DNA of 63,917 nucleotides, filler included, from Rhabdomonas costata (taxonomy: Eukaryota): the NCBI GenBank assembly GCA_019059605.1. It is 35 parts of 35 records of this genome, joined end to end, with 100 filler letters (N's around TTAATTAATTAA, not from the genome) between each part and the next. Parts side by side here need not be neighbours in the genome. Positions count along the whole stretch, not along the records: positions 54,878 to 56,605 come from JAHMHO010009991.1; positions 56,706 to 58,436 come from JAHMHO010009992.1; 33 more parts are not named here. One strand, given 5' to 3'. The number at the start of each line of letters is the position of its first letter. Positions within the stretch are counted from its first letter, which is position 1. A model generated the notes under the pieces. It did not search any database, was not told where the DNA came from, and saw only the letters and a list, made by a program, of their open reading frames with translations. A program made the position numbers and the translations under genes. Shown one piece after another: positions 31,076 to 63,917 of this stretch.

Positions 31076-31710
31076 AGCCCAGAACCATAAGAGATAGCAA
31101 CAACGAGGTGAAGAACCTTTGACTTGGATTCGTGCTCGTGGCGACCCCTGGCAGTCACAGAAAGCTTTTCAGATTTTTTGAGCCACGCCTTTGATTTCGT
31201 GACACATCCTGATTCTTTTGGCCTCGTTTTGTGCACAAAGCTCACGCAATCCAGGTAAAGACCGACGTTTTCCCAAAACGAAGCTGGGAGATGCTTGTGC
31301 TTTTGGCACCAAGCGAGGCGCTTTTTTCGGTCTTGAGCGGATAGAATTCCTTTCCTGCGCAAATTGCTCCACTGCAGACCACCTCGATGCATTTCCCGAT
31401 ATAGGGTGGACAGCGAGACGCATGACAGCAGGCCGCATTCTTTCGCCAGTTGGCGAACCGAAAAATTTACATTCATTTTCCTCATTTTCCCCACTGCTCG
31501 GATGAGCAGGCGCCTCTCTCGAGCCCCAAGCTTACGGTGGCGACCAGCTGGCTTCGGGAAGCTGGTAACAGGTGATTTTTGCAAAAGCTTCTTTTTAATG
31601 AGGGCAACGGAGCCGAGAGAGATGCCACACTTGGCGGAGATGGTTCTGTACGAAGTACCGCTCAATATAAGGAAAGCAGCCAACGCCCGACGGAAAGAGG
31701 TAATCACCAT
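31076..31710 (-). mobile_element. IS630/Tc1-mariner-like DDE transposase, N-terminal part (runs off contig start)
   Basis: Intronless ORF with HTH (SYRTISAKCGISLGSV), GRxxKL linker (GRHRKLGARERRLLIR), second HTH (SVRQLAKECG...VSLSTLYR), RRKGILSxxDRKKRLAWC...FW and the first catalytic Asp in LYLDCVSF. Start at ATG 31710 is a best guess. Confidence 0.88.
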
Positions 31711-31875
31711 AGATGACGAAAAATGCTCAGGAAAGGCCCTGTAAGAAAACCTTAGAAAAAGCGGTAATGAAGGCAAAAAACCACACAAAATATGCATAAT
31801 GAGAAAAATACAGTCATCACTCAACCCTAATTTTCTGCAAAATCACGTTTTCTTATGACAAGAATTCGATTTGTC

Positions 31876-43910: not shown

Positions 43911-45132
43911 GGCTTCAGGTCACACAGGAAGGGCACACGGTCGGAAACTTTCTGGAAGTCGTCAATGGTCAGCGACACGCCGATCGCGCGCGCCATCGCA
44001 ATCAGGTGCAGCACCGCATTGGTGGAGCCACCTGGGGGACCGGGAAGTCGCAAGAGGTGTTTGAAAAGGAAAACCGCACAAGCAGGGTTAATTAACAATT
44101 CTGCAAAACGCACAAAGTGCTATTTTGGGAACAAACCAGTGCAACCCTGTTTTCGTGTGGAGCAATGAGGAGCTTTTCTTGCGCCGACTGTTTGTTGGGC
44201 TTGATTCACCTCGACTAAAAATCGAGTCCTTTCGGTTTTGTGGAGGCACAAAGGAAATGCGATGGGATATACATGTATATGTGTATTGCTCAGGACCTGT
44301 GACCATGACCATCACCATGGCATTCTCGAAGGCCTCCCGGGTCATGATGTCCTTGGGGCGAATGTTCTTCTCGAGCATGTAGCGAATCGCCTTGCCTGCG
44401 CAGCAGACAGAGAGAGAGAAACCAGGTGTGCAGAGTGCATGGGTGTGAGGACAAAGGACAGAAAACCACGCACGCGACGAAAAACGAGTCCGCTGTCCAA
44501 AAGCAAGAACCCACTTCAGGAACCCACGTCTTGGAAACTCCCACCCTATGACACAGTTAAACCCCAAAAATTCTAACCTGTACAGTGAAAAAGGGTCAAT
44601 CAAGACCGTTCTGTTAGTTCCCTGAGTTGCCTGAACACCTGTTCCCATCGAAAGACGATGCTCACCCCATTCTGCGACACGTAAAAGACCGATAGGTCAC
44701 ACCCTGGAAAAGTGTGCACACAACCACGCAGTATGACATCCACGGGACGACGTTTGTCGACGATCCGTCCTTTTTCTACTGAAAGCCGTAAGGTCAAAAA
44801 GTCCACTCATCTGACATTTCAGTCTTCGCAAAAGCCATTCCAGTTCCCAATCTGGCCGTGGGGTTGCGCAGCCAATAGCTCGCGTTAAGAGATGACTGAC
44901 AAATGCGACTGTGAGTGACAAGGTGCGCGTTCGGGCAATGGTGTGTGTGGGGGTGCACCTGCGTCGAGGCACTCCTGAATCTTCTCCTTGGACTCCGCAG
45001 GGCTGGAGGAGGAGTACGGCAGGGTCATCCCCAAGGTCTCGATGGCCGTGGCCATGGTGTTCGCAGTGTACATCCCACCGCAGGCCCCGCTGCCGGGGCA
45101 GGAGTGCCGAACAACGTCCGCGCGCTGCTCCT
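43911..45132 (-). CDS. ilvD: Dihydroxy-acid dehydratase, partial; exons 44959-45132, 44297-44395, 43911-44031
   Basis: [16 protein letters not shown]...[40 protein letters not shown]...[13 protein letters not shown] introns in phase. Confidence 0.97.
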
Positions 45133-45842
45133 CTGAGGTGAAAGAGGGGAGCACACCCAAAATACCACCCGGAGCTTCCACTGTGTGTGTGTGCACCAAA
45201 CAAAAGGAGCCACTCAAATTCAAACAACGCATTCCTCCCGCACTCTCCAAATTCTTTTAAGTGTTATGATCACAAACCTGCCCTTGTCATCAGCGCACGC
45301 CAAAAAGATTTTGACAGAGAGGGTCCGGTGAACTTCGTTAAAATTTCAGATCGTTAAAATTGTCCCACGCACCCCACGACTGCACCTCTGCAAAAACTTC
45401 ATTTCAGTCCAAGGAAAGAAGCGCGTCGCCACCTCCGCCATTGCAGTACTTCTGTTGGGATATCCTAACCCGGTGTCAAACTCCCCTTTGACGCCCGGGA
45501 GAGTTTGTGAGACGTTTAAAACCGTTCAACGTCCAACGCCCATTAGATGGGCACCCCCCCCCATATTGTACATACCCCGAGAAATGAACTCGAATATTCG
45601 CATACTTCGACATGAAGGATCTTTTCTGCCACCAACCCNNNNNNNNNNNNNNNNNNNNNNNNNNNNNNNNNNNNNNNNNNNNTTAATTAATTAANNNNNN
45701 NNNNNNNNNNNNNNNNNNNNNNNNNNNNNNNNNNNNNNGGTTGTGGGGGGGTGTATCACGTATTGGGCATCTGCGCTAGATGGCTTTTCGGCAGATACCC
45801 ATTGCCAAGTTCATTTTCGTTGTCACTTGTTTTTTTTTGCAG

Positions 45843-54768: not shown

Positions 54769-54877
54769 AACACAACCNNNNNNNNNNNNNNNNNNNNNNN
54801 NNNNNNNNNNNNNNNNNNNNNTTAATTAATTAANNNNNNNNNNNNNNNNNNNNNNNNNNNNNNNNNNNNNNNNNNNN

Positions 54878-55789
54878 GTATTTTTTGTTAAAATTATGAT
54901 CTCTAATATGTTCATATGCAGGTCTTGATGCATCAATAATAAGGAAGACATCCTGAAATAAATTTAATTTTTTGGCCATAATTAAAGTATCAAGAACACA
55001 AAAATCAGTAACAATACCACCTACAAAAATACGTATTTTATTATTATTATTTTTTGATTGATAAGATTGTATAATATTTGTAATTGATCTTACTTTTTTT
55101 ATTTGATATAACATATTCGGTTTTTCTATATCATGTATTGGATTATAATGTGCAAGTTCAAATGCTCCTGTATTATGTAAAGGTGGCTTTGAATCTTTAA
55201 AAGTAAGTCGTTCATGTGCATATTCTTCATTATAAGGAAATGCACCGAAACTATTAATATCATCAGAGATTCCTTTAAAAACGACATGAATATTTTTTTC
55301 TTTAGAAACAACAAGATTACAAAGTTTTTTTTTAAAAGATAAATTAAAATTACTATCTGGTTCATCACGAATATGATATGCATCATATTTTTTATGATTA
55401 CCAACAAATGATATGTTGTTTCTACTGTGAAAATCTTTTGTACAAATGATAATATTAAATAAATCTAAAAGATATGTAAAATTTGTAATAACTTGTTCAA
55501 CTTCTTTAACATGATATTTTTGTCCTTTCATACTTGAAACTTGTAAATCAATAGCTATTAATACATCATTTTCTTCAAGTTTAATTGCTTTATTCTCAAT
55601 CTCAACACCTGATTTTTGTAATAAATACATAAATTCATATAATATTGGACTTTTCTGTTTATCTATATATTTATGATCTTGATCATTACTAGATATTTCA
55701 TGATCAATATCTGATGTATATCTAATATGATCACTATTAATAATAGATCTTTTATGATCTATATTAAAAAAATTTTTAATAAACACCAT
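54878..55789 (-). CDS. pncA: Nicotinamidase/pyrazinamidase (isochorismatase family), 3'-truncated, AT-rich and intronless
   Basis: VLIAIDLQ (catalytic Asp), TKDFH..ISF (metal ligands), VVFKG...SFGAF (Lys), IFVGGIVTDFCVLDT (Cys), IIDASRP. Confidence 0.88.
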
Positions 55790-55848
55790 ATATATTTTAC
55801 AAAAAAATTAGAAAATAATTTAGCGACGCCTGGATGATGATATGTAGA

Positions 55849-55894
55849 TATTTATATAAAGAAATATTTAAATATTTATTTCTTTAAATAAATA
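55849..55894 (-). terminator. AT-rich hairpin overlapping the LRR stop codon; candidate giant-virus-type 3'-end signal
   Basis: TATTTATATAAAGAAATA (55849-55866) pairs with TATTTCTTTAAATAAATA (55877-55894): 18 bp with one mismatch, 10-nt loop. Confidence 0.5.
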
Positions 55895-56600
55895 ATTTAA
55901 TAATTTCATCAGTATAAGCTGCTTCAGTAATACGAATACAATTAAATACTTTTAATTGTGTTAAAGATGCTAGAGTATGATTTGTAAATTTTATATTATT
56001 GCCACTGTCTAATATTTTTAATTGGGATAACGGTTTAATGCCGTTATCTGTAAAATTATTGTTCCATCCACAATATAATGTATGTAAATTTGATAACGGT
56101 TTTAGGCCGTTATCAGTAAATTTAGTATTATTACCACAATTTAAATATTTTAATTGGGATAACATTCGAAGGCTGTTATCCGTAAAATTATTATTCCATC
56201 CACAAAATAAAATTTGTAATTTAGATAACGGCATTAGGCCGTTATCTGTAAAATTATTGTTCCATTTACAATGTAATGTATGTAAATTAGATAATTGCTT
56301 AAGGCCGTTGTCAGTAAATTTATTATTATTACCACATTTTAGTGTATGTAACTGAGACAATGGCCGAAGGCCATTATCAGTAAAATTTAAATTGTAACCA
56401 CAATCTAAATATTGTAATTGATGTAATTGCTGTAAGCAGTTATCTGTAAAATTATCATTATTACCACATTTCAATACACGTAATTGAGATAACGACCTAA
56501 GGCCATTATCAGTAAATCTATCATTCCATTTACATATAAGTATTCTTAAATTAGATAACTGCTGTAAGCAGTTATCAGTAAAATTATTATTATTACCACA
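55884..56600 (-). CDS. Leucine-rich repeat protein, at least ten 22-aa repeats, 5'-truncated
   Basis: Unit LxxLxCGxNxxFTDNGLxxLSx (66-nt period); the frame stays open to the contig end beyond the tracked start. Confidence 0.93.
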   Translation of the reverse strand, partial: CGNNNNFTDNCLQQLSNLRILICKWNDRFTDNGLRSLSQLRVLKCGNNDNFTDNCLQQLHQLQYLDCGYNLNFTDNGLRPLSQLHTLKCGNNNKFTDNGLKQLSNLHTLHCKWNNNFTDNGLMPLSKLQILFCGWNNNFTDNSLRMLSQLKYLNCGNNTKFTDNGLKPLSNLHTLYCGWNNNFTDNGIKPLSQLKILDSGNNIKFTNHTLASLTQLKVFNCIRITEAAYTDEIIKLFI

Positions 56601-58536
56601 CCCCCNNNNNNNNNNNNNNNNNNNNNNNNNNNNNNNNNNNNNNNNNNNNTTAATTAATTAANNNNNNNNNNNNNNNNNNNNNNNNNNNNNNNNNNNNNNN
56701 NNNNNGGTTGTGGGGTGCTTTCTCTTCCTGCTGGGGTGGCGTGGCTACGAGGGTGCGAGGGCGCGCAAGCTTCAACTCCAAAACCCAAAGCTCTTGGCAA
56801 ACTGCCTGCAAGTGGGCTGCCCTTCCGCGTGGAGGGTGTGATTTCGACTGCCTGATGCCTGTGGTGTGCTTTGTCATCGCCCCTTCTAACTAACACGCGC
56901 ACTTCAGGTGGTGTGAGTGTGCCCTTTGGCCTTTCACAGCTTTCCCCTATTCCCGGCTTGTGCGTAGAAGCAAGGCGAGCACAGCAACAGCCAAACAGTA
57001 CGAACAAGGCAAGCCAGCCAACACCGCACGACTTACGATACACAGCTCCACTGCCCAAACCTTCACAACACCTCTTGCGCGGCACCCTACGAACTCAACC
57101 CCTACAACCAAAACCCCAAACAAATGCAAGAAAGAGGAAATTAAACACACCAAACCTCAACCCATTGCTTTACGTAATCACCAAACTCCTACTCCAACAC
57201 GTCAGGTCAAAAAATCCACAAAACACTTCCAAAGCCCTTTTTGATTCTTCAACTCGATGTAGAAAGTCTTGAAGATTCCACTCAATGTAATTTTCTTCAA
57301 AATCCGCGGCAATCTCGACCATCACCACATCGTCCTCGGAATTCTTCGAAATTCTTCGAAATTCTTTGCTCCACCGCGTTCTCCTTGTCGAATTCTATCA
57401 AGATAGTTCTTGTACGAATGCAAAATCCTCTGCTTTCAACCTTCTGCTTGCGATTCGCAACTTTTTCTCGCCACGCCCAGCTTCCTACTGAGCCTCCGGC
57501 GCTCCAACTCTACGAAAACCGCCTCTCACCTCAATTTCTCTGCTACTTTCTCTTCTCCTTGCTTTCCTTCATCTTACGAACCTGCAATCTTCTGCTTTCT
57601 TCCTTTTGGCTGCCCTTCCCTTTTATCCCTGCTTCTCTCTGTCTCTCTTTCTCTCCGCTTCGGCCTCCTTTGTCCCACTTTTCTCTCTCCTGATATATGC
57701 TCTCGCTCTCTGCTTCTGGTTTTTCTGTCCTTTTTGGTTCGGACTGCTATTCTCTTTTCTCTTTACCCTGCCTTCATTTCCTCTGCGCTGACCTCGGCTT
57801 CGGGCTGCCTCTCCTCTCGCGGGGTCGTTCTTCTTCAGCTTCTCGTCCCGCTCTGCTTCTTCTCGTCAGCTTGCCCTCCAGCACCGGGGTCCCACTGCGC
57901 TTTTCCAAGGTCTTCTCCTCAACTGGCGCCGCTGGCCGGGGCATTCCTGCCTCAACCCGCCGCCTGCTGCACTTTGCATCCCCCTTCCTGTTCTCCCGGG
58001 GATGCTTTCCACGGCCTTCTCGCTCAACTTCTCCAAACCTGCGCGGCCAACTCGTCGTGTGCTCAGATCTGCGGCCTTGTCCTCCTCAACGTCGTCCTCC
58101 GGAACGGCTCTCCTCAGCGCCGTCCTCCTGCGCCTTCTCCTTCTTGTTTTCCGCCGCCTTTGCTACCAGCACTCTGCTCAAAGCTTCAGCTTGACCGCCT
58201 CTGCTCCTAAAACTCTCTTTCTGAACCTCTCCTTTGAAAAACCTGCTTTCCACACTCGCTTCTCCACTGGCCTTTGCTCTGCACCACTGCCTCCTCCAAA
58301 AAGCTGTCCTTACGAACTGCCTGCTGCTAACTCGCTTTTCTACTGCTCTCGCACAGATTTACGAATTTCTTGAACACCTTCAAAGCCTCAACTGATATCT
58401 GCTCTTGAAACGATCTCCTCTGACTAACCAAACACCNNNNNNNNNNNNNNNNNNNNNNNNNNNNNNNNNNNNNNNNNNNNTTAATTAATTAANNNNNNNN
58501 NNNNNNNNNNNNNNNNNNNNNNNNNNNNNNNNNNNN

Positions 58537-61840: not shown

Positions 61841-62427
61841 GTGAGTGTGGGCGCCCCTGTGTTCAGATGGGCAAACGGTCATTTTGGCTTTTGCATTTTG
61901 GCCGCCAGAAACCTCTATTTGAAGCAAGGTGCACGGTCGCGTCTGGCTTGTGGCTGTAGACTTGGCTGTGCTGAATGCTGCTTGCTTGCTGCTTGCTGGT
62001 TCCTTCCATCGTGGCTTGGTAAACGCTTGTGTCCCACAACGCAGTTTATTATTGAGATTTCCCCAGAACCTCCGCCCAGCAGATGGGTTANNNNNNNNNN
62101 NNNNNNNNNNNNNNNNNNNNNNNNNNNNNNNNNNTTAATTAATTAANNNNNNNNNNNNNNNNNNNNNNNNNNNNNNNNNNNNNNNNNNNNGTTTTTGTGT
62201 GTGCGCGTTGAGCGCACGGAAGATAATGGGCTGTTTCGGGGCATAGCTCCATTTGCTCTCTGTATCTGAAACACTGCTTGTTTTCAACTGCTGGGTGTGC
62301 CGCACCACTGGGTTCCTGTTCCGGTTGGCCACTTGCCGGAGCAACGGAGGGTTGGAGGGTTGTTGGCTGTCCGCTGCCGCACCTTACCCCAATGCGGTGT
62401 GTGTGGTGGGCGGGAAAATGGGTGCAC

Positions 62428-63015
62428 CTTCCCCGAGGCAGCGGGACCAACCACCATGATTCCGTGACGAACGCGCTTGGTCTCGTATAGCTGCACCACT
62501 TTCTGCGCCCTGGGAGGGTCGCAAAAGGAGTGATGAATGACAGCACTGAACAAATCCCAAAAGTTTCCAAAAATACAGTGCACTGCCGAAACGAGACGAG
62601 AAAAACATCTAAGCATGGATGCGGCGGAAACTCCACCACAACCTTGAAGGGATCCAGCAGCAGTGGATGCAATGTGGCCGCCGCCACGTCACCAAGAATA
62701 CAGGAATACCCGTGTTCACGTTCACGTTGAGCGAGCGAGACTCCGCTTTAGAACGGGGCACAGTAGAAGGAGCAAAGAGAGGGGTGAAAGGCGTGGGGTG
62801 AGGGAGAGAAGCATGCACCAGGAAGGGTGGTGGACGTAACGTAGTCGCGCGGCGTGTCTCTCCACGGCAGCCTCCAATTCTGGGTAGCTAGCCTTCTCGC
62901 TGGACTTCCCAGGGAACATGTCCAGAATCAGAGAGATAAATAGGTCCACATCCTCGTATACCAGCTTGGAGAGATTCATGTCCCGCAGGGTGCGCATCAG
63001 GAGAAACTCCTCGTC
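62428..63015 (-). CDS. Axonemal outer-arm dynein heavy chain (gamma/DNAH5-8 type), AAA1-AAA2 region; exons 62819-63015 and 62428-62509
   Basis: LMRTLRDMNLSKLVYEDVDLFISLILDMFP...YPELEAAV...HPSW|AQKVVQLYETKRVRHGIMVVGPAASGK (P-loop). Confidence 0.95.
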
Positions 63016-63917
63016 CTGGTAAGCCCACACACCGCCCTGCTCCCTCCAAGTAGCCCAGGGTCCTCATTGCTAAGCAGGGCCCCCATGCGCAGAGCCTAAC
63101 GTCGGGCAGTGTCCCAGTGCTTAAGCACTCTCTCTTGGTGGGTCCCAGTGCAATTATTTGTTCTTGCGAGTCCGGATTTTGGTGAAGGCAGGTCTTCCTT
63201 CCTGAGGAGTGGGGTGGAGAGGGAGGGAGGGGGGTAGTAATGGGAGAAGGTTGTCCCTTTAACCTCGAACAGACCTGTGCAGCCCACCCCCACCCGGAAG
63301 GGATGATGGGTGCAAACTCGCCAACGTCAAGCAACAGACCGAAACTCAAAGGAGTAACTGTCCTCATACTCGGGAGTCGGGCTTGAAAACTACTTTCACC
63401 ACCCATCGCATATCTGAAGCCTCTGCCTCAGGCAATGTCGGCTTTCCACGGCTGCGGCTGAGGGACTGTTGCCTCCGTTTCACAACCCTGGGCAGCCCAG
63501 CTGAGGACGACAAGCGAAGAAGGGCAATGCTCACCAAAGACCGCCTTAAAGGGTGTCCTTCTTCTTAAGAAGAAAAACGATGGGCTTATTGTCATTCTCT
63601 CCAACTCCTGGAAGGTCGCTCAGTTGACCCGGGAACTGCAGCAGGTCTTCGACCATGCAAGCGGGCGGGGACACCGCGCTGTCCGGTGTCCCGTGCGGCG
63701 GTAAAGAAGGCATCGTATACCACTGAAAGCCTCTCAGGGAAGCCAGAGAAAGAAACTCCTGCAATCAAAACCAAAGCATCCACAAGCCGGTGCATGTGGG
63801 CTCATTCCATCGTTTACTAAAACAAAACCGTGGACTTCAAACCAAGGGAGGTTCAGATTTGTGCAGACATAAGAAAAGCAGGGGTGGACATCCTATCGGG
63901 TGTCTGTAACCCACCAC

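Follow-up and report, generated by a model that had tools for sequence, protein, structure and literature searches.

The locus described here carries two genes on a single AT-rich contig, ORF A, with a predicted nicotinamidase-type product, and ORF B, with LRR repeats (Table 1). The contig is one of the 35 pieces, of 1720-1768 bp each (~1.73 kb), that make up the window, by which we mean the whole stretch of 63,917 nucleotides from the Rhabdomonas costata assembly; the pieces are separated by N44-TTAATTAATTAA-N44 linkers. Its GC content is 0.244, against a mean of 0.513 (sd 0.025) in the other 34 pieces (z = -10.65), which range from 46.5 to 57.1%. A preliminary description had set a GC content of about a quarter against about half elsewhere, and this contrast holds, with "elsewhere" meaning unlinked contigs rather than flanking DNA. 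Along the contig GC stays between 0.19 and 0.28 (200-bp steps) and is even up to both ends, so the contig carries no host-like flank.

Gene density is high, and the layout is that of intronless genes with a short AT-rich spacer. The two co-oriented, intronless ORFs and the gap between them are as first described, except that both genes are truncated by contig ends; each is intact in its visible part. Across their 543 codons there are no in-frame stops and no introns. The proteins are rich in Asn, Ile and Lys, as had been claimed (together 31% of residues in ORF A and 28% in ORF B), and GC3 is 8% and 19%, respectively. Glutamine is encoded by CAA and CAG, and internal TAA or TAG codons are absent.

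The absence of a Shine-Dalgarno site was confirmed: none of GGAG, GAGG, AGGA and AAGG occurs in the 25 nt before the ATG of ORF A. A sigma-70 scan was at chance (17 sites vs 19.0 +/- 4.3 expected), no intrinsic-terminator-like site was found, and an Rfam scan of the window gave 0 matches. The early promoter motif of Mimiviridae, AAAATTGA, has 0 copies in the contig. This motif stands before only ~45% of mimivirus genes (PMC5294985), and because a single promoter is visible here its absence is weak evidence. The late-promoter motif TCTA is not above chance in the spacer (P = 0.19). None of 200 shuffles folds as well as the hairpin, whose interval was picked after inspection of the fold, and the whole spacer reaches z = -0.57 only. 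Under the "hairpin rule" of Byrne et al. 2009, an A/T-rich hairpin reportedly marks the 3' end of mimivirus transcripts.

Table 1. Features of the AT-rich contig and its borders, in window coordinates
Feature	Coordinates	Strand	Description
Artificial linker, N44-TTAATTAATTAA-N44	54778..54877	.	Joins unlinked contigs; not biology
AT-rich contig	54878..56605	.	1728 bp, 24.4% GC, 94.6% coding; exactly one piece
ORF A (P0001)	54878..55789	-	304 codons from ATG, 3' end off contig; divergent nicotinamidase/isochorismatase-like cysteine hydrolase (predicted)
Spacer	55790..55883	-	94 bp, 18% GC; no SD-like site, no AAAATTGA; two TCTA at -59 and -23
A/U hairpin	55848..55892	-	15 pairs, starting at ORF B TAA stop; -8.4 kcal/mol, z = -3.21
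ORF B (P0002)	55884..56605	-	239 codons + TAA stop, 5' end off contig; reading frame 56603..55887, stop at 55884-55886; ten 22-residue LRR units + short C-terminal cap
Artificial linker	56606..56705	.	To next unlinked contig

Two gene families and their relatives

Judged against a 318-aa relative (P0043), ORF A lacks ~35-45 C-terminal residues. D81, K172 and C264 are invariant in an alignment of 10 sequences, and the Asp and Cys motifs align with those of solved nicotinamidases. The structural model (pLDDT 74.8, pTM 0.78) has a nicotinamidase fold; its best 10 PDB matches are all nicotinamidases or pyrazinamidases (best E 1.3e-9), and the profile of the ORF A family matches 1ilw at E = 7.9e-40. 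With PF00857, ORF A scores 15.5 bits, under the Pfam gathering score of 27, and P0043 passes it at 30.7 bits. On sequence and fold, then, we classify ORF A as a divergent nicotinamidase-type cysteine hydrolase in which the D-K-C triad is kept and the activity is predicted. The cellular enzymes PncA and Pnc1 (2wta, 3r2j, 3v8e, 1ilw) have the same fold and the same three residues; ORF A has in addition an N-terminal extension of ~40 residues, modelled at low confidence, and further segments interposed between the strands of the core.

The named relatives closest to ORF A come from protist transcriptomes (Ancoracysta, Peranema, Ploeotia, Diplonema and Tetraselmis), at 31-34% identity, whereas viral proteins reach 17-26%. 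ORF A also bears a long insert seen in protist and giant-virus forms. All four viral matches in BFVD at E <= 0.001 belong to giant viruses, namely Tetraselmis virus 1, Bodo saltans virus (an "isochorismatase hydrolase", 26%), Hokovirus (a "nicotinamidase") and Yasminevirus. As a single query against IMG/VR, P0001 found 0 relatives; five IMG/VR loci (L025-L029), two of them in giant-virus bins, encode distant ones, and one IMG/VR relative has an NCLDV major capsid gene (Capsid_NCLDV 5.9e-51) at a distance of 237 bp. The fold and the DFCV cysteine motif are common to ORF A and these giant-virus nicotinamidases. Some further relatives, on 20-39-kb contigs, carry only the JGI name "nicotinamidase-related amidase" and could be bacterial. 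In a nicotinamidase tree of 50 rows, from which P0060 and P0084 were omitted for length, ORF A and P0043 form a long-stemmed pair of their own that is unplaced among the other rows, 24 of the 47 inner branches being unsupported.

ORF B is modelled as a regular LRR solenoid (pLDDT 89.8). The short-period LRR of the preliminary description is present, with its period corrected to 22 residues, or 66 bp: the unit reads CGxNNNFTDNGLxxLSxLxxL, ten units were counted by eye, and TRF gave a period of 66 with 8.6 copies on the DNA. Its Pfam matches are LRR_4 (44.4 bits vs a cut-off of 27), LRR_14 and LRR_6. Full-length relatives bear an F-box at the N-terminal head of the alignment, the part that is missing from ORF B itself; the F-box scores 29.6 bits in L007 and 21.2 bits in L009 (cut-off 20.5). 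The combination of F-box and LRR is a eukaryotic architecture. The 22-residue period and the Gly/Asn/Phe-rich turn after the beta strand recall the FNIP/IP22 repeats of Dictyostelium and giant viruses, from which ORF B differs in that FNIP is not among the 9 Pfam families matching it at E <= 1. In giant viruses, FNIP/IP22 repeats are associated with F-box heads (PMC5753266, PMC9525666).

None of the 39 LRR matches to ORF B came from NCBI or UniRef, and the sole named organism among them was a weak EukProt match (E = 1.6e-5). Several sit on metagenome contigs of 9-28 kb. For the two gene families, the nearest relatives are encoded on metagenome contigs of 18.7 and 9.2 kb (P0003/P0043) and 28.4 kb (P0004). 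In BFVD, 188 viral proteins matched at E <= 0.001; among the best 50, 49 are from named Nucleocytoviricota and one is without a name. Since BFVD consists of viruses only, it cannot weigh cellular origins. Its best matches to ORF B are LRR/F-box proteins of Mimivirus LCMiAC01, Edafosvirus, Hyperionvirus, Harvfovirus, Catovirus, Barrevirus, Bodo saltans virus and Tupanvirus, at <=34% identity. The Klosneuvirinae-like families compared (those of the viruses just named, Barrevirus apart) belong to AT-rich genomes with many paralogues; they share with ORF B the short-period LRR solenoid (query-normalised TM-score <=0.82) and with its full-length relatives the F-box head.

Among the 10 nearest Atlas clusters listed for ORF B, six have a viral share of 83-100%, in which Nucleocytoviricota are the most frequent group; the best score is 0.97, although the recognition value of 1311 lies below 2300, where a high score is weak evidence. 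In one listed row Eukaryota make up 50%, most often Tubulinea. No listed row is mainly bacterial; Pseudomonadota are commonest in rows 4 and 5, with 2 records each. P0002 as a single query found 0 relatives in IMG/VR, three IMG/VR scans with the repeat motif gave family members in 0 loci, 0 of 11 and 0 of 75, and it is in this that ORF B differs from the Klosneuvirinae-like families, the CGxNNNFTDNGL unit not being found there. Nor do the three giant-virus records searched, each with a related nicotinamidase, encode a relative of ORF B (0/3). Across 185,579 prokaryote species genomes the motif occurred at 5 loci, none of which encodes a relative.

Layout of related metagenome loci

L009 and L019 are metagenome contigs of 26% GC. 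Their F-box-LRR genes share 39-41% identity with ORF B; coding density is 95% in L009 and 85% in L019, and the spacers measure 19-124 bp at 6-16% GC. The AT-rich contig resembles both in its layout. The XRN exonuclease encoded on L009 has a counterpart in the bin GVMAG-M-3300007619-1 (21.7% GC), with which it shares 42% identity (E = 7e-123), and AAAATTGA occurs 6 times within 3.1 kb of L019. The layout of these two loci is of the mimivirus type. The LRR relatives closest to ORF B lie elsewhere, on L007, L010, L015 and L017 (42-54% identity). These are just 37-72% coding, with long tracts at 8-32% GC and GC-rich palindromic clusters, and their layout is unlike that of a giant virus. A GC-cluster element from the BBPE01 loci had 0 matches in IMG/VR, tRNA scans of seven related loci found 0 genes, and a local tblastn of L030 found a relative of neither ORF A nor ORF B.

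Origin of the contig

We propose that the contig probably derives from a giant virus of AT-rich composition, a Klosneuvirinae-like member of Imitervirales, that was sequenced together with the eukaryote. The likeness to a giant virus noted at the outset is borne out in layout, gene families and related loci; with no member of the LRR subfamily in the three IMG/VR scans, it stays a resemblance. The contig holds two genes, and NCLDV hallmark genes are not among them. Likewise, 0 of the 140 ORFs of >= 110 aa in the window match an NCLDV family, which says little, the remaining pieces being unlinked and of host origin.

Under this proposal the source would be an AT-rich Nucleocytoviricota genome, most like those of Imitervirales/Klosneuvirinae, and the co-sequenced eukaryote would be the ~51% GC component. 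LRR and F-box repeat families are described as typical for amoebal giant viruses (PMC5753266). ORF B would be one member among the paralogues of an F-box-LRR multigene family, and these proteins may recruit host proteins to the SCF ubiquitin ligase of the host. ORF A might act as an auxiliary NAD-salvage enzyme, converting nicotinamide to nicotinate, and the A/U hairpin at the stop codon of ORF B may mark a transcript 3' end in mimivirus-like fashion.

The preliminary description had named an AT-rich endosymbiont or contaminant as the alternative, and origins of this kind, taken in total, are possible though on the less probable side. One of them, which we regard as rather unlikely, is a nuclear origin: the contig would come from an AT-rich protist with densely packed genes, or from a microsporidian-like parasite, that entered the sample as prey, symbiont or parasite of the sequenced eukaryote or as a laboratory contaminant. 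Such an origin is consistent with the protist transcriptomes being nearest to ORF A among named relatives, although viral transcripts may also occur inside protist transcriptomes. It also agrees with the eukaryotic architecture of F-box plus LRR, with the long AT-rich non-coding tracts of L007, L010, L015 and L017, with the lack of ORF B family members in IMG/VR and with the Atlas row that is half Eukaryota. However, 94.6% coding, a 94-bp spacer and 0 introns in 543 codons speak against protist nuclear DNA, as does the lack of any NCBI, UniRef or strong EukProt protein among the 39 LRR matches, by which no sequenced AT-rich eukaryote has the LRR family. The codon usage rules out ciliate-type codes as well.

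A further explanation keeps the viral origin and has the contig integrated in a host chromosome, as an endogenised giant-virus element (GEVE), and not derived from a free virus or from contamination. GEVEs are reported from many algal and protist assemblies (PMC9693826, PMC10675990, PMC13236599), and known cases of GEVEs and of viral contamination likewise involve compositionally foreign, giant-virus-like DNA in a eukaryote assembly. The visible parts of both ORFs are intact, which an integrated copy would allow, and yet GC of 0.19-0.28 to both ends leaves no host-like flank. One end of the contig falls within a single-copy gene, and this would fit low coverage better than a chromosomal locus at host coverage. 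Relative to the published cases, the present contig offers 1.7 kb only, no junction and no hallmark gene. We hold a GEVE to be quite improbable.

More improbable still is that the DNA comes from an intracellular, AT-rich bacterium, for instance a symbiont resembling Dependentiae, Rickettsiales or Legionellales. Intracellular bacteria of protists carry eukaryote-like F-box and LRR effectors, the contig is compact, intronless and low in GC, and the ORF A relatives that JGI names "nicotinamidase-related amidase" would fit if they are bacterial. Against this, the one visible start has no SD-like site and the contig no intrinsic-terminator-like site, none of the 5 motif loci from prokaryote genomes encodes an ORF B relative, the Atlas listing has no mainly bacterial row, and the long insert of ORF A is that of protist and giant-virus forms. 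Two other candidates were rejected: a ciliate, on the absence of internal TAA/TAG and the use of CAA/CAG for Gln, and an organelle or nucleomorph, to which the gene content appears a poor fit.

Bearing on the assembly

If the contig is viral, ORF A and ORF B are not to be annotated as host genes, and the contig, as a flag of giant-virus DNA in the assembly, therefore matters for decontamination; it might also indicate a virus-host pair. Giant-virus-like passenger DNA in a eukaryote assembly is a known and common kind of finding. Fragments of giant viruses are well documented in assemblies of protists and algae, so 1.7 kb lacking a hallmark gene leaves general views as they were.

A more specific hypothesis is that an uncatalogued, very AT-rich lineage of Imitervirales naturally infects the sequenced flagellate, or is integrated in it; its distinguishing features would be an F-box-LRR family of its own, built on the 22-residue CGxNNNFTDNGL unit, and the divergent nicotinamidase. 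We offer this joint claim tentatively, as an unlikely one; were it true, the assembly would record a new virus-host pair. In the searches run here neither gene has a close IMG/VR relative, and no match came from an NCBI or UniRef record. All close relatives of the 22-residue NFTD LRR family and of the ORF A/P0043 nicotinamidase branch are metagenomic, and the two thus point to a poorly sampled AT-rich lineage.

Composition, layout and spacer of the AT-rich contig

The AT-rich stretch is exactly one contig, and its low GC content is uniform up to either end (0.244 vs 0.513 +/- 0.025 in the remaining pieces; z = -10.65). Its preliminary description as a compact two-ORF contig was confirmed: at 24.4% GC it carries two co-oriented ORFs separated by a 94-bp spacer (18% GC), with no SD-like tetramer in the final 25 nt upstream of the ATG of ORF A. 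The coding fraction is 94.6%, and the two ORFs have GC3 values of 8% and 19% and N+I+K contents of 31% and 28%. Both lie on the minus strand, and each runs off the contig, so that both genes are truncated by its ends. One of these breaks falls inside a single-copy gene, which may point to low coverage.

Mimivirus transcripts reportedly follow a “hairpin rule”, with an A/T-rich hairpin at the transcript 3' end. An A/U hairpin of 15 pairs starts at the TAA of ORF B (-8.4 kcal/mol, z = -3.21, matched by none of 200 shuffles) within a 45-nt window picked after the fold was seen, while the whole spacer gives z = -0.57. In the related metagenome loci L009 and L019, folding is significant for two of the five spacers (z = -2.71 and -3.18) but not for the other three. 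The spacer of our contig lacks AAAATTGA, which PMC5294985 gives as the Mimiviridae early promoter motif, and holds two copies of TCTA, given there as the CroV late motif, at chance level (P = 0.19).

Features of the window and of related metagenome loci
Feature	Position	Strand	Remark
Contig under study	54878-56605		
ORF A (P0001), nicotinamidase-like	55789..54878	-	304 aa
ORF B (P0002), LRR protein	56603..55887	-	239 aa; Pfam match
Linkers, e.g.	1727-1826, 54778-54877, 56606-56705		artificial N44-TTAATTAATTAA-N44
Dihydroxy-acid dehydratase and dynein heavy chain (AAA_6)	44091-45263 and 62287-63063	-	Pfam, two different frames each
Tc3/mariner-type transposase fragment	31078-31842	-	Pfam HTH_Tnp_Tc3_2, 6.1e-7
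Mitochondrial carrier			Pfam, 3.5e-34
eIF3c			Pfam
RCC1-like repeats			Pfam, 2 ORFs
TylF-like methyltransferase piece			Pfam
F-box genes	L009:2764-4700, L019:1-447	-	near-identical heads (DWFLVEHIFSFLDQKTQVRM)
GC-rich palindromic clusters	L007:2554-4334, L017:1883-2199		e.g. units around GGGAGCAAGACGGTTTTGG
Non-coding tract	L010:1-968		968 bp, 8% GC
Cas12f1-like/TnpB TNB domain ORF	L020:217-642	+	2.2e-18

The two genes and their relatives

ORF A is a divergent, probably active nicotinamidase-type cysteine hydrolase, as judged from its retained triad together with profile, single-sequence and predicted-structure matches. D81, K172 and C264 are invariant in an alignment of 10 sequences; the family profile matches solved nicotinamidases at 7.9e-40 and ORF A by itself at 6e-9; and the best 10 PDB rows for its AlphaFold model (pLDDT 74.8, pTM 0.78) are exclusively nicotinamidases and pyrazinamidases. 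Alone, it scores 15.5 bits against Pfam Isochorismatase, under the cut-off of 27. A phmmer search of 1.84 billion representatives found 175 relatives at E <= 0.001 and 38 at 1e-10, only one of them close: the metagenome protein P0043 (48% identity, 1.2e-72), which recurs as P0003 and whose contigs reach 18.7 kb. Names were looked up for 20 relative clusters, 10 of which have none; the named relatives come from protist transcriptomes (Ancoracysta, Peranema, Ploeotia, Diplonema, Tetraselmis), and some JGI proteins are labelled nicotinamidase-related amidase. All four viral structures matched at E <= 0.001 belong to giant viruses (Tetraselmis virus 1, Bodo saltans virus, Hokovirus and Yasminevirus). 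Five IMG/VR loci hold distant relatives, two within giant-virus bins, and one of these genes has an NCLDV capsid gene 237 bp away. A 50-row nicotinamidase tree (P0060 and P0084 excluded for length) is without resolution, with ORF A and P0043 as a separate long-stemmed pair.

The short-period LRR expansion noticed earlier in ORF B is present, with its period corrected to 22 residues (TRF 66 bp, 8.6 copies): ten units of CGxNNNFTDNGLxxLSxLxxL followed by a short cap. It scores 44.4 bits against LRR_4, has no match to the Pfam FNIP model, and is modelled as a regular solenoid (pLDDT 89.8). A word-indexed search found 39 relatives, none from NCBI or UniRef and all of metagenome origin bar one weak EukProt match. 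An F-box heads the full-length relatives, and the N-terminus of ORF B itself is absent from the contig. The BFVD search gave 188 viral matches at E <= 0.001; the best 50 of these comprise 49 from Nucleocytoviricota and one unnamed, led by Klosneuvirinae-like LRR and F-box proteins at <= 34% identity. Of the 10 clusters listed by the Atlas, six are 83-100% viral, Nucleocytoviricota being commonest, at a recognition value (1311) under the level at which a high score is trusted. Because BFVD covers viruses only, the BFVD and Atlas results weigh cellular origins poorly. One metagenome relative, P0007, has a P-loop (GPPGVGKT) in a non-AT-rich N-terminal part where others have the F-box, and would represent a fusion or else an error of gene calling.

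Origin of the contig

We propose that the contig derives from a giant virus of the Imitervirales/Klosneuvirinae kind, the best-supported reading and one we hold with some confidence, because it agrees with the contig's composition and layout, with the two gene families and with a pair of related contigs. This narrows the initial assignment to Nucleocytoviricota and concerns origin only; the DNA may be infecting, integrated or contaminating. The two related contigs emerged when the back-translated ORF B repeat motif was scanned in IMG/VR (0 loci), 185,579 prokaryote species genomes (5 loci, with no true relative among them) and JGI metagenome contigs (19 loci, 8 encoding relatives, one weak). 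L009 and L019 look like mimivirus-type contigs, and our contig shares their layout: both are 26% GC, their coding fractions are 95% and 85%, and their spacers measure 19-124 bp with a GC content of 6-16%. Their gene set comprises a kinase, an XRN exonuclease, F-box-LRR and F-box-DUF4116 proteins and a weak capping-enzyme match; the XRN of this group is 42% identical (7e-123) to that of a 21.7%-GC giant-virus bin, and AAAATTGA occurs six times within 3.1 kb of L019. Behind their near-identical F-box heads stand LRRs in one gene and DUF4116 in the next, which suggests that repeat modules are shuffled behind a common F-box in a giant-virus-like contig.

Other evidence points away from a giant virus. 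No hallmark gene was found (0 of 140 window ORFs of at least 110 aa match NCLDV hallmark families in Pfam), and the ORF B subfamily has no member in IMG/VR by motif scan, two looser motifs giving 0/11 and 0/75 true relatives. L007, L010, L015 and L017 are closer to ORF B (42-54% identity), yet they are only 37-72% coding and contain extended stretches at 8-32% GC as well as palindromic clusters rich in GC, a layout that argues against a giant virus. ORF A is also nearer to protist homologues than to viral ones. A source in an AT-rich protist is unlikely in our judgement. An AT-rich intracellular bacterium is more improbable still; an AT-rich endosymbiont or contaminant was the alternative raised at the outset. 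The contig has no terminator-like site. A bacterial promoter scan of it is at chance level.

The GC-rich clusters of L007 and L017 are scattered in AT-rich non-coding DNA, adjoin the closest LRR relatives and resemble MITEs or GC clusters; one 19-mer common to them has no match in IMG/VR. The non-coding tract of L010 lies upstream of an F-box-LRR gene, and the whole locus (1778 bp) is unusually extreme at 11.6% GC. In L020, a 1.3-kb metagenome contig, the ORF with the TNB domain adjoins a weak LRR relative.

If the giant-virus origin is correct, the host's SCF ubiquitin ligase would be supplied with host proteins through the F-box-LRR paralogues, and the nicotinamidase would feed into NAD salvage. 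PMC5753266 describes repeat families of this kind as a typical feature of giant viruses of amoebae, and giant-virus DNA is reported to be well documented in protist and algal assemblies; the contig would thus be a further case of a known phenomenon, and matters little unless the remainder of the virus emerges from the full assembly.

Remaining contigs of the window

The window joins 35 unlinked pieces of 1720-1768 bp (~1.73 kb each), sorted by length. All are short contigs from a fragmented assembly, so adjacent pieces are not genome neighbours, and any feature across a linker or “neighbourhood” between pieces is an artefact. The other 34 pieces (46.5-57.1% GC) are, where readable, intron-split eukaryotic nuclear gene fragments. 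Pfam at E <= 1e-5 matches 11 of the 140 window ORFs, ORF B included. The two frames seen in each of the dihydroxy-acid dehydratase and dynein genes fit exons with introns between, and this pair of genes suggests a flagellated eukaryotic host that makes its own branched-chain amino acids. The transposase fragment sits on the 1768-bp contig, the sole odd-sized piece.
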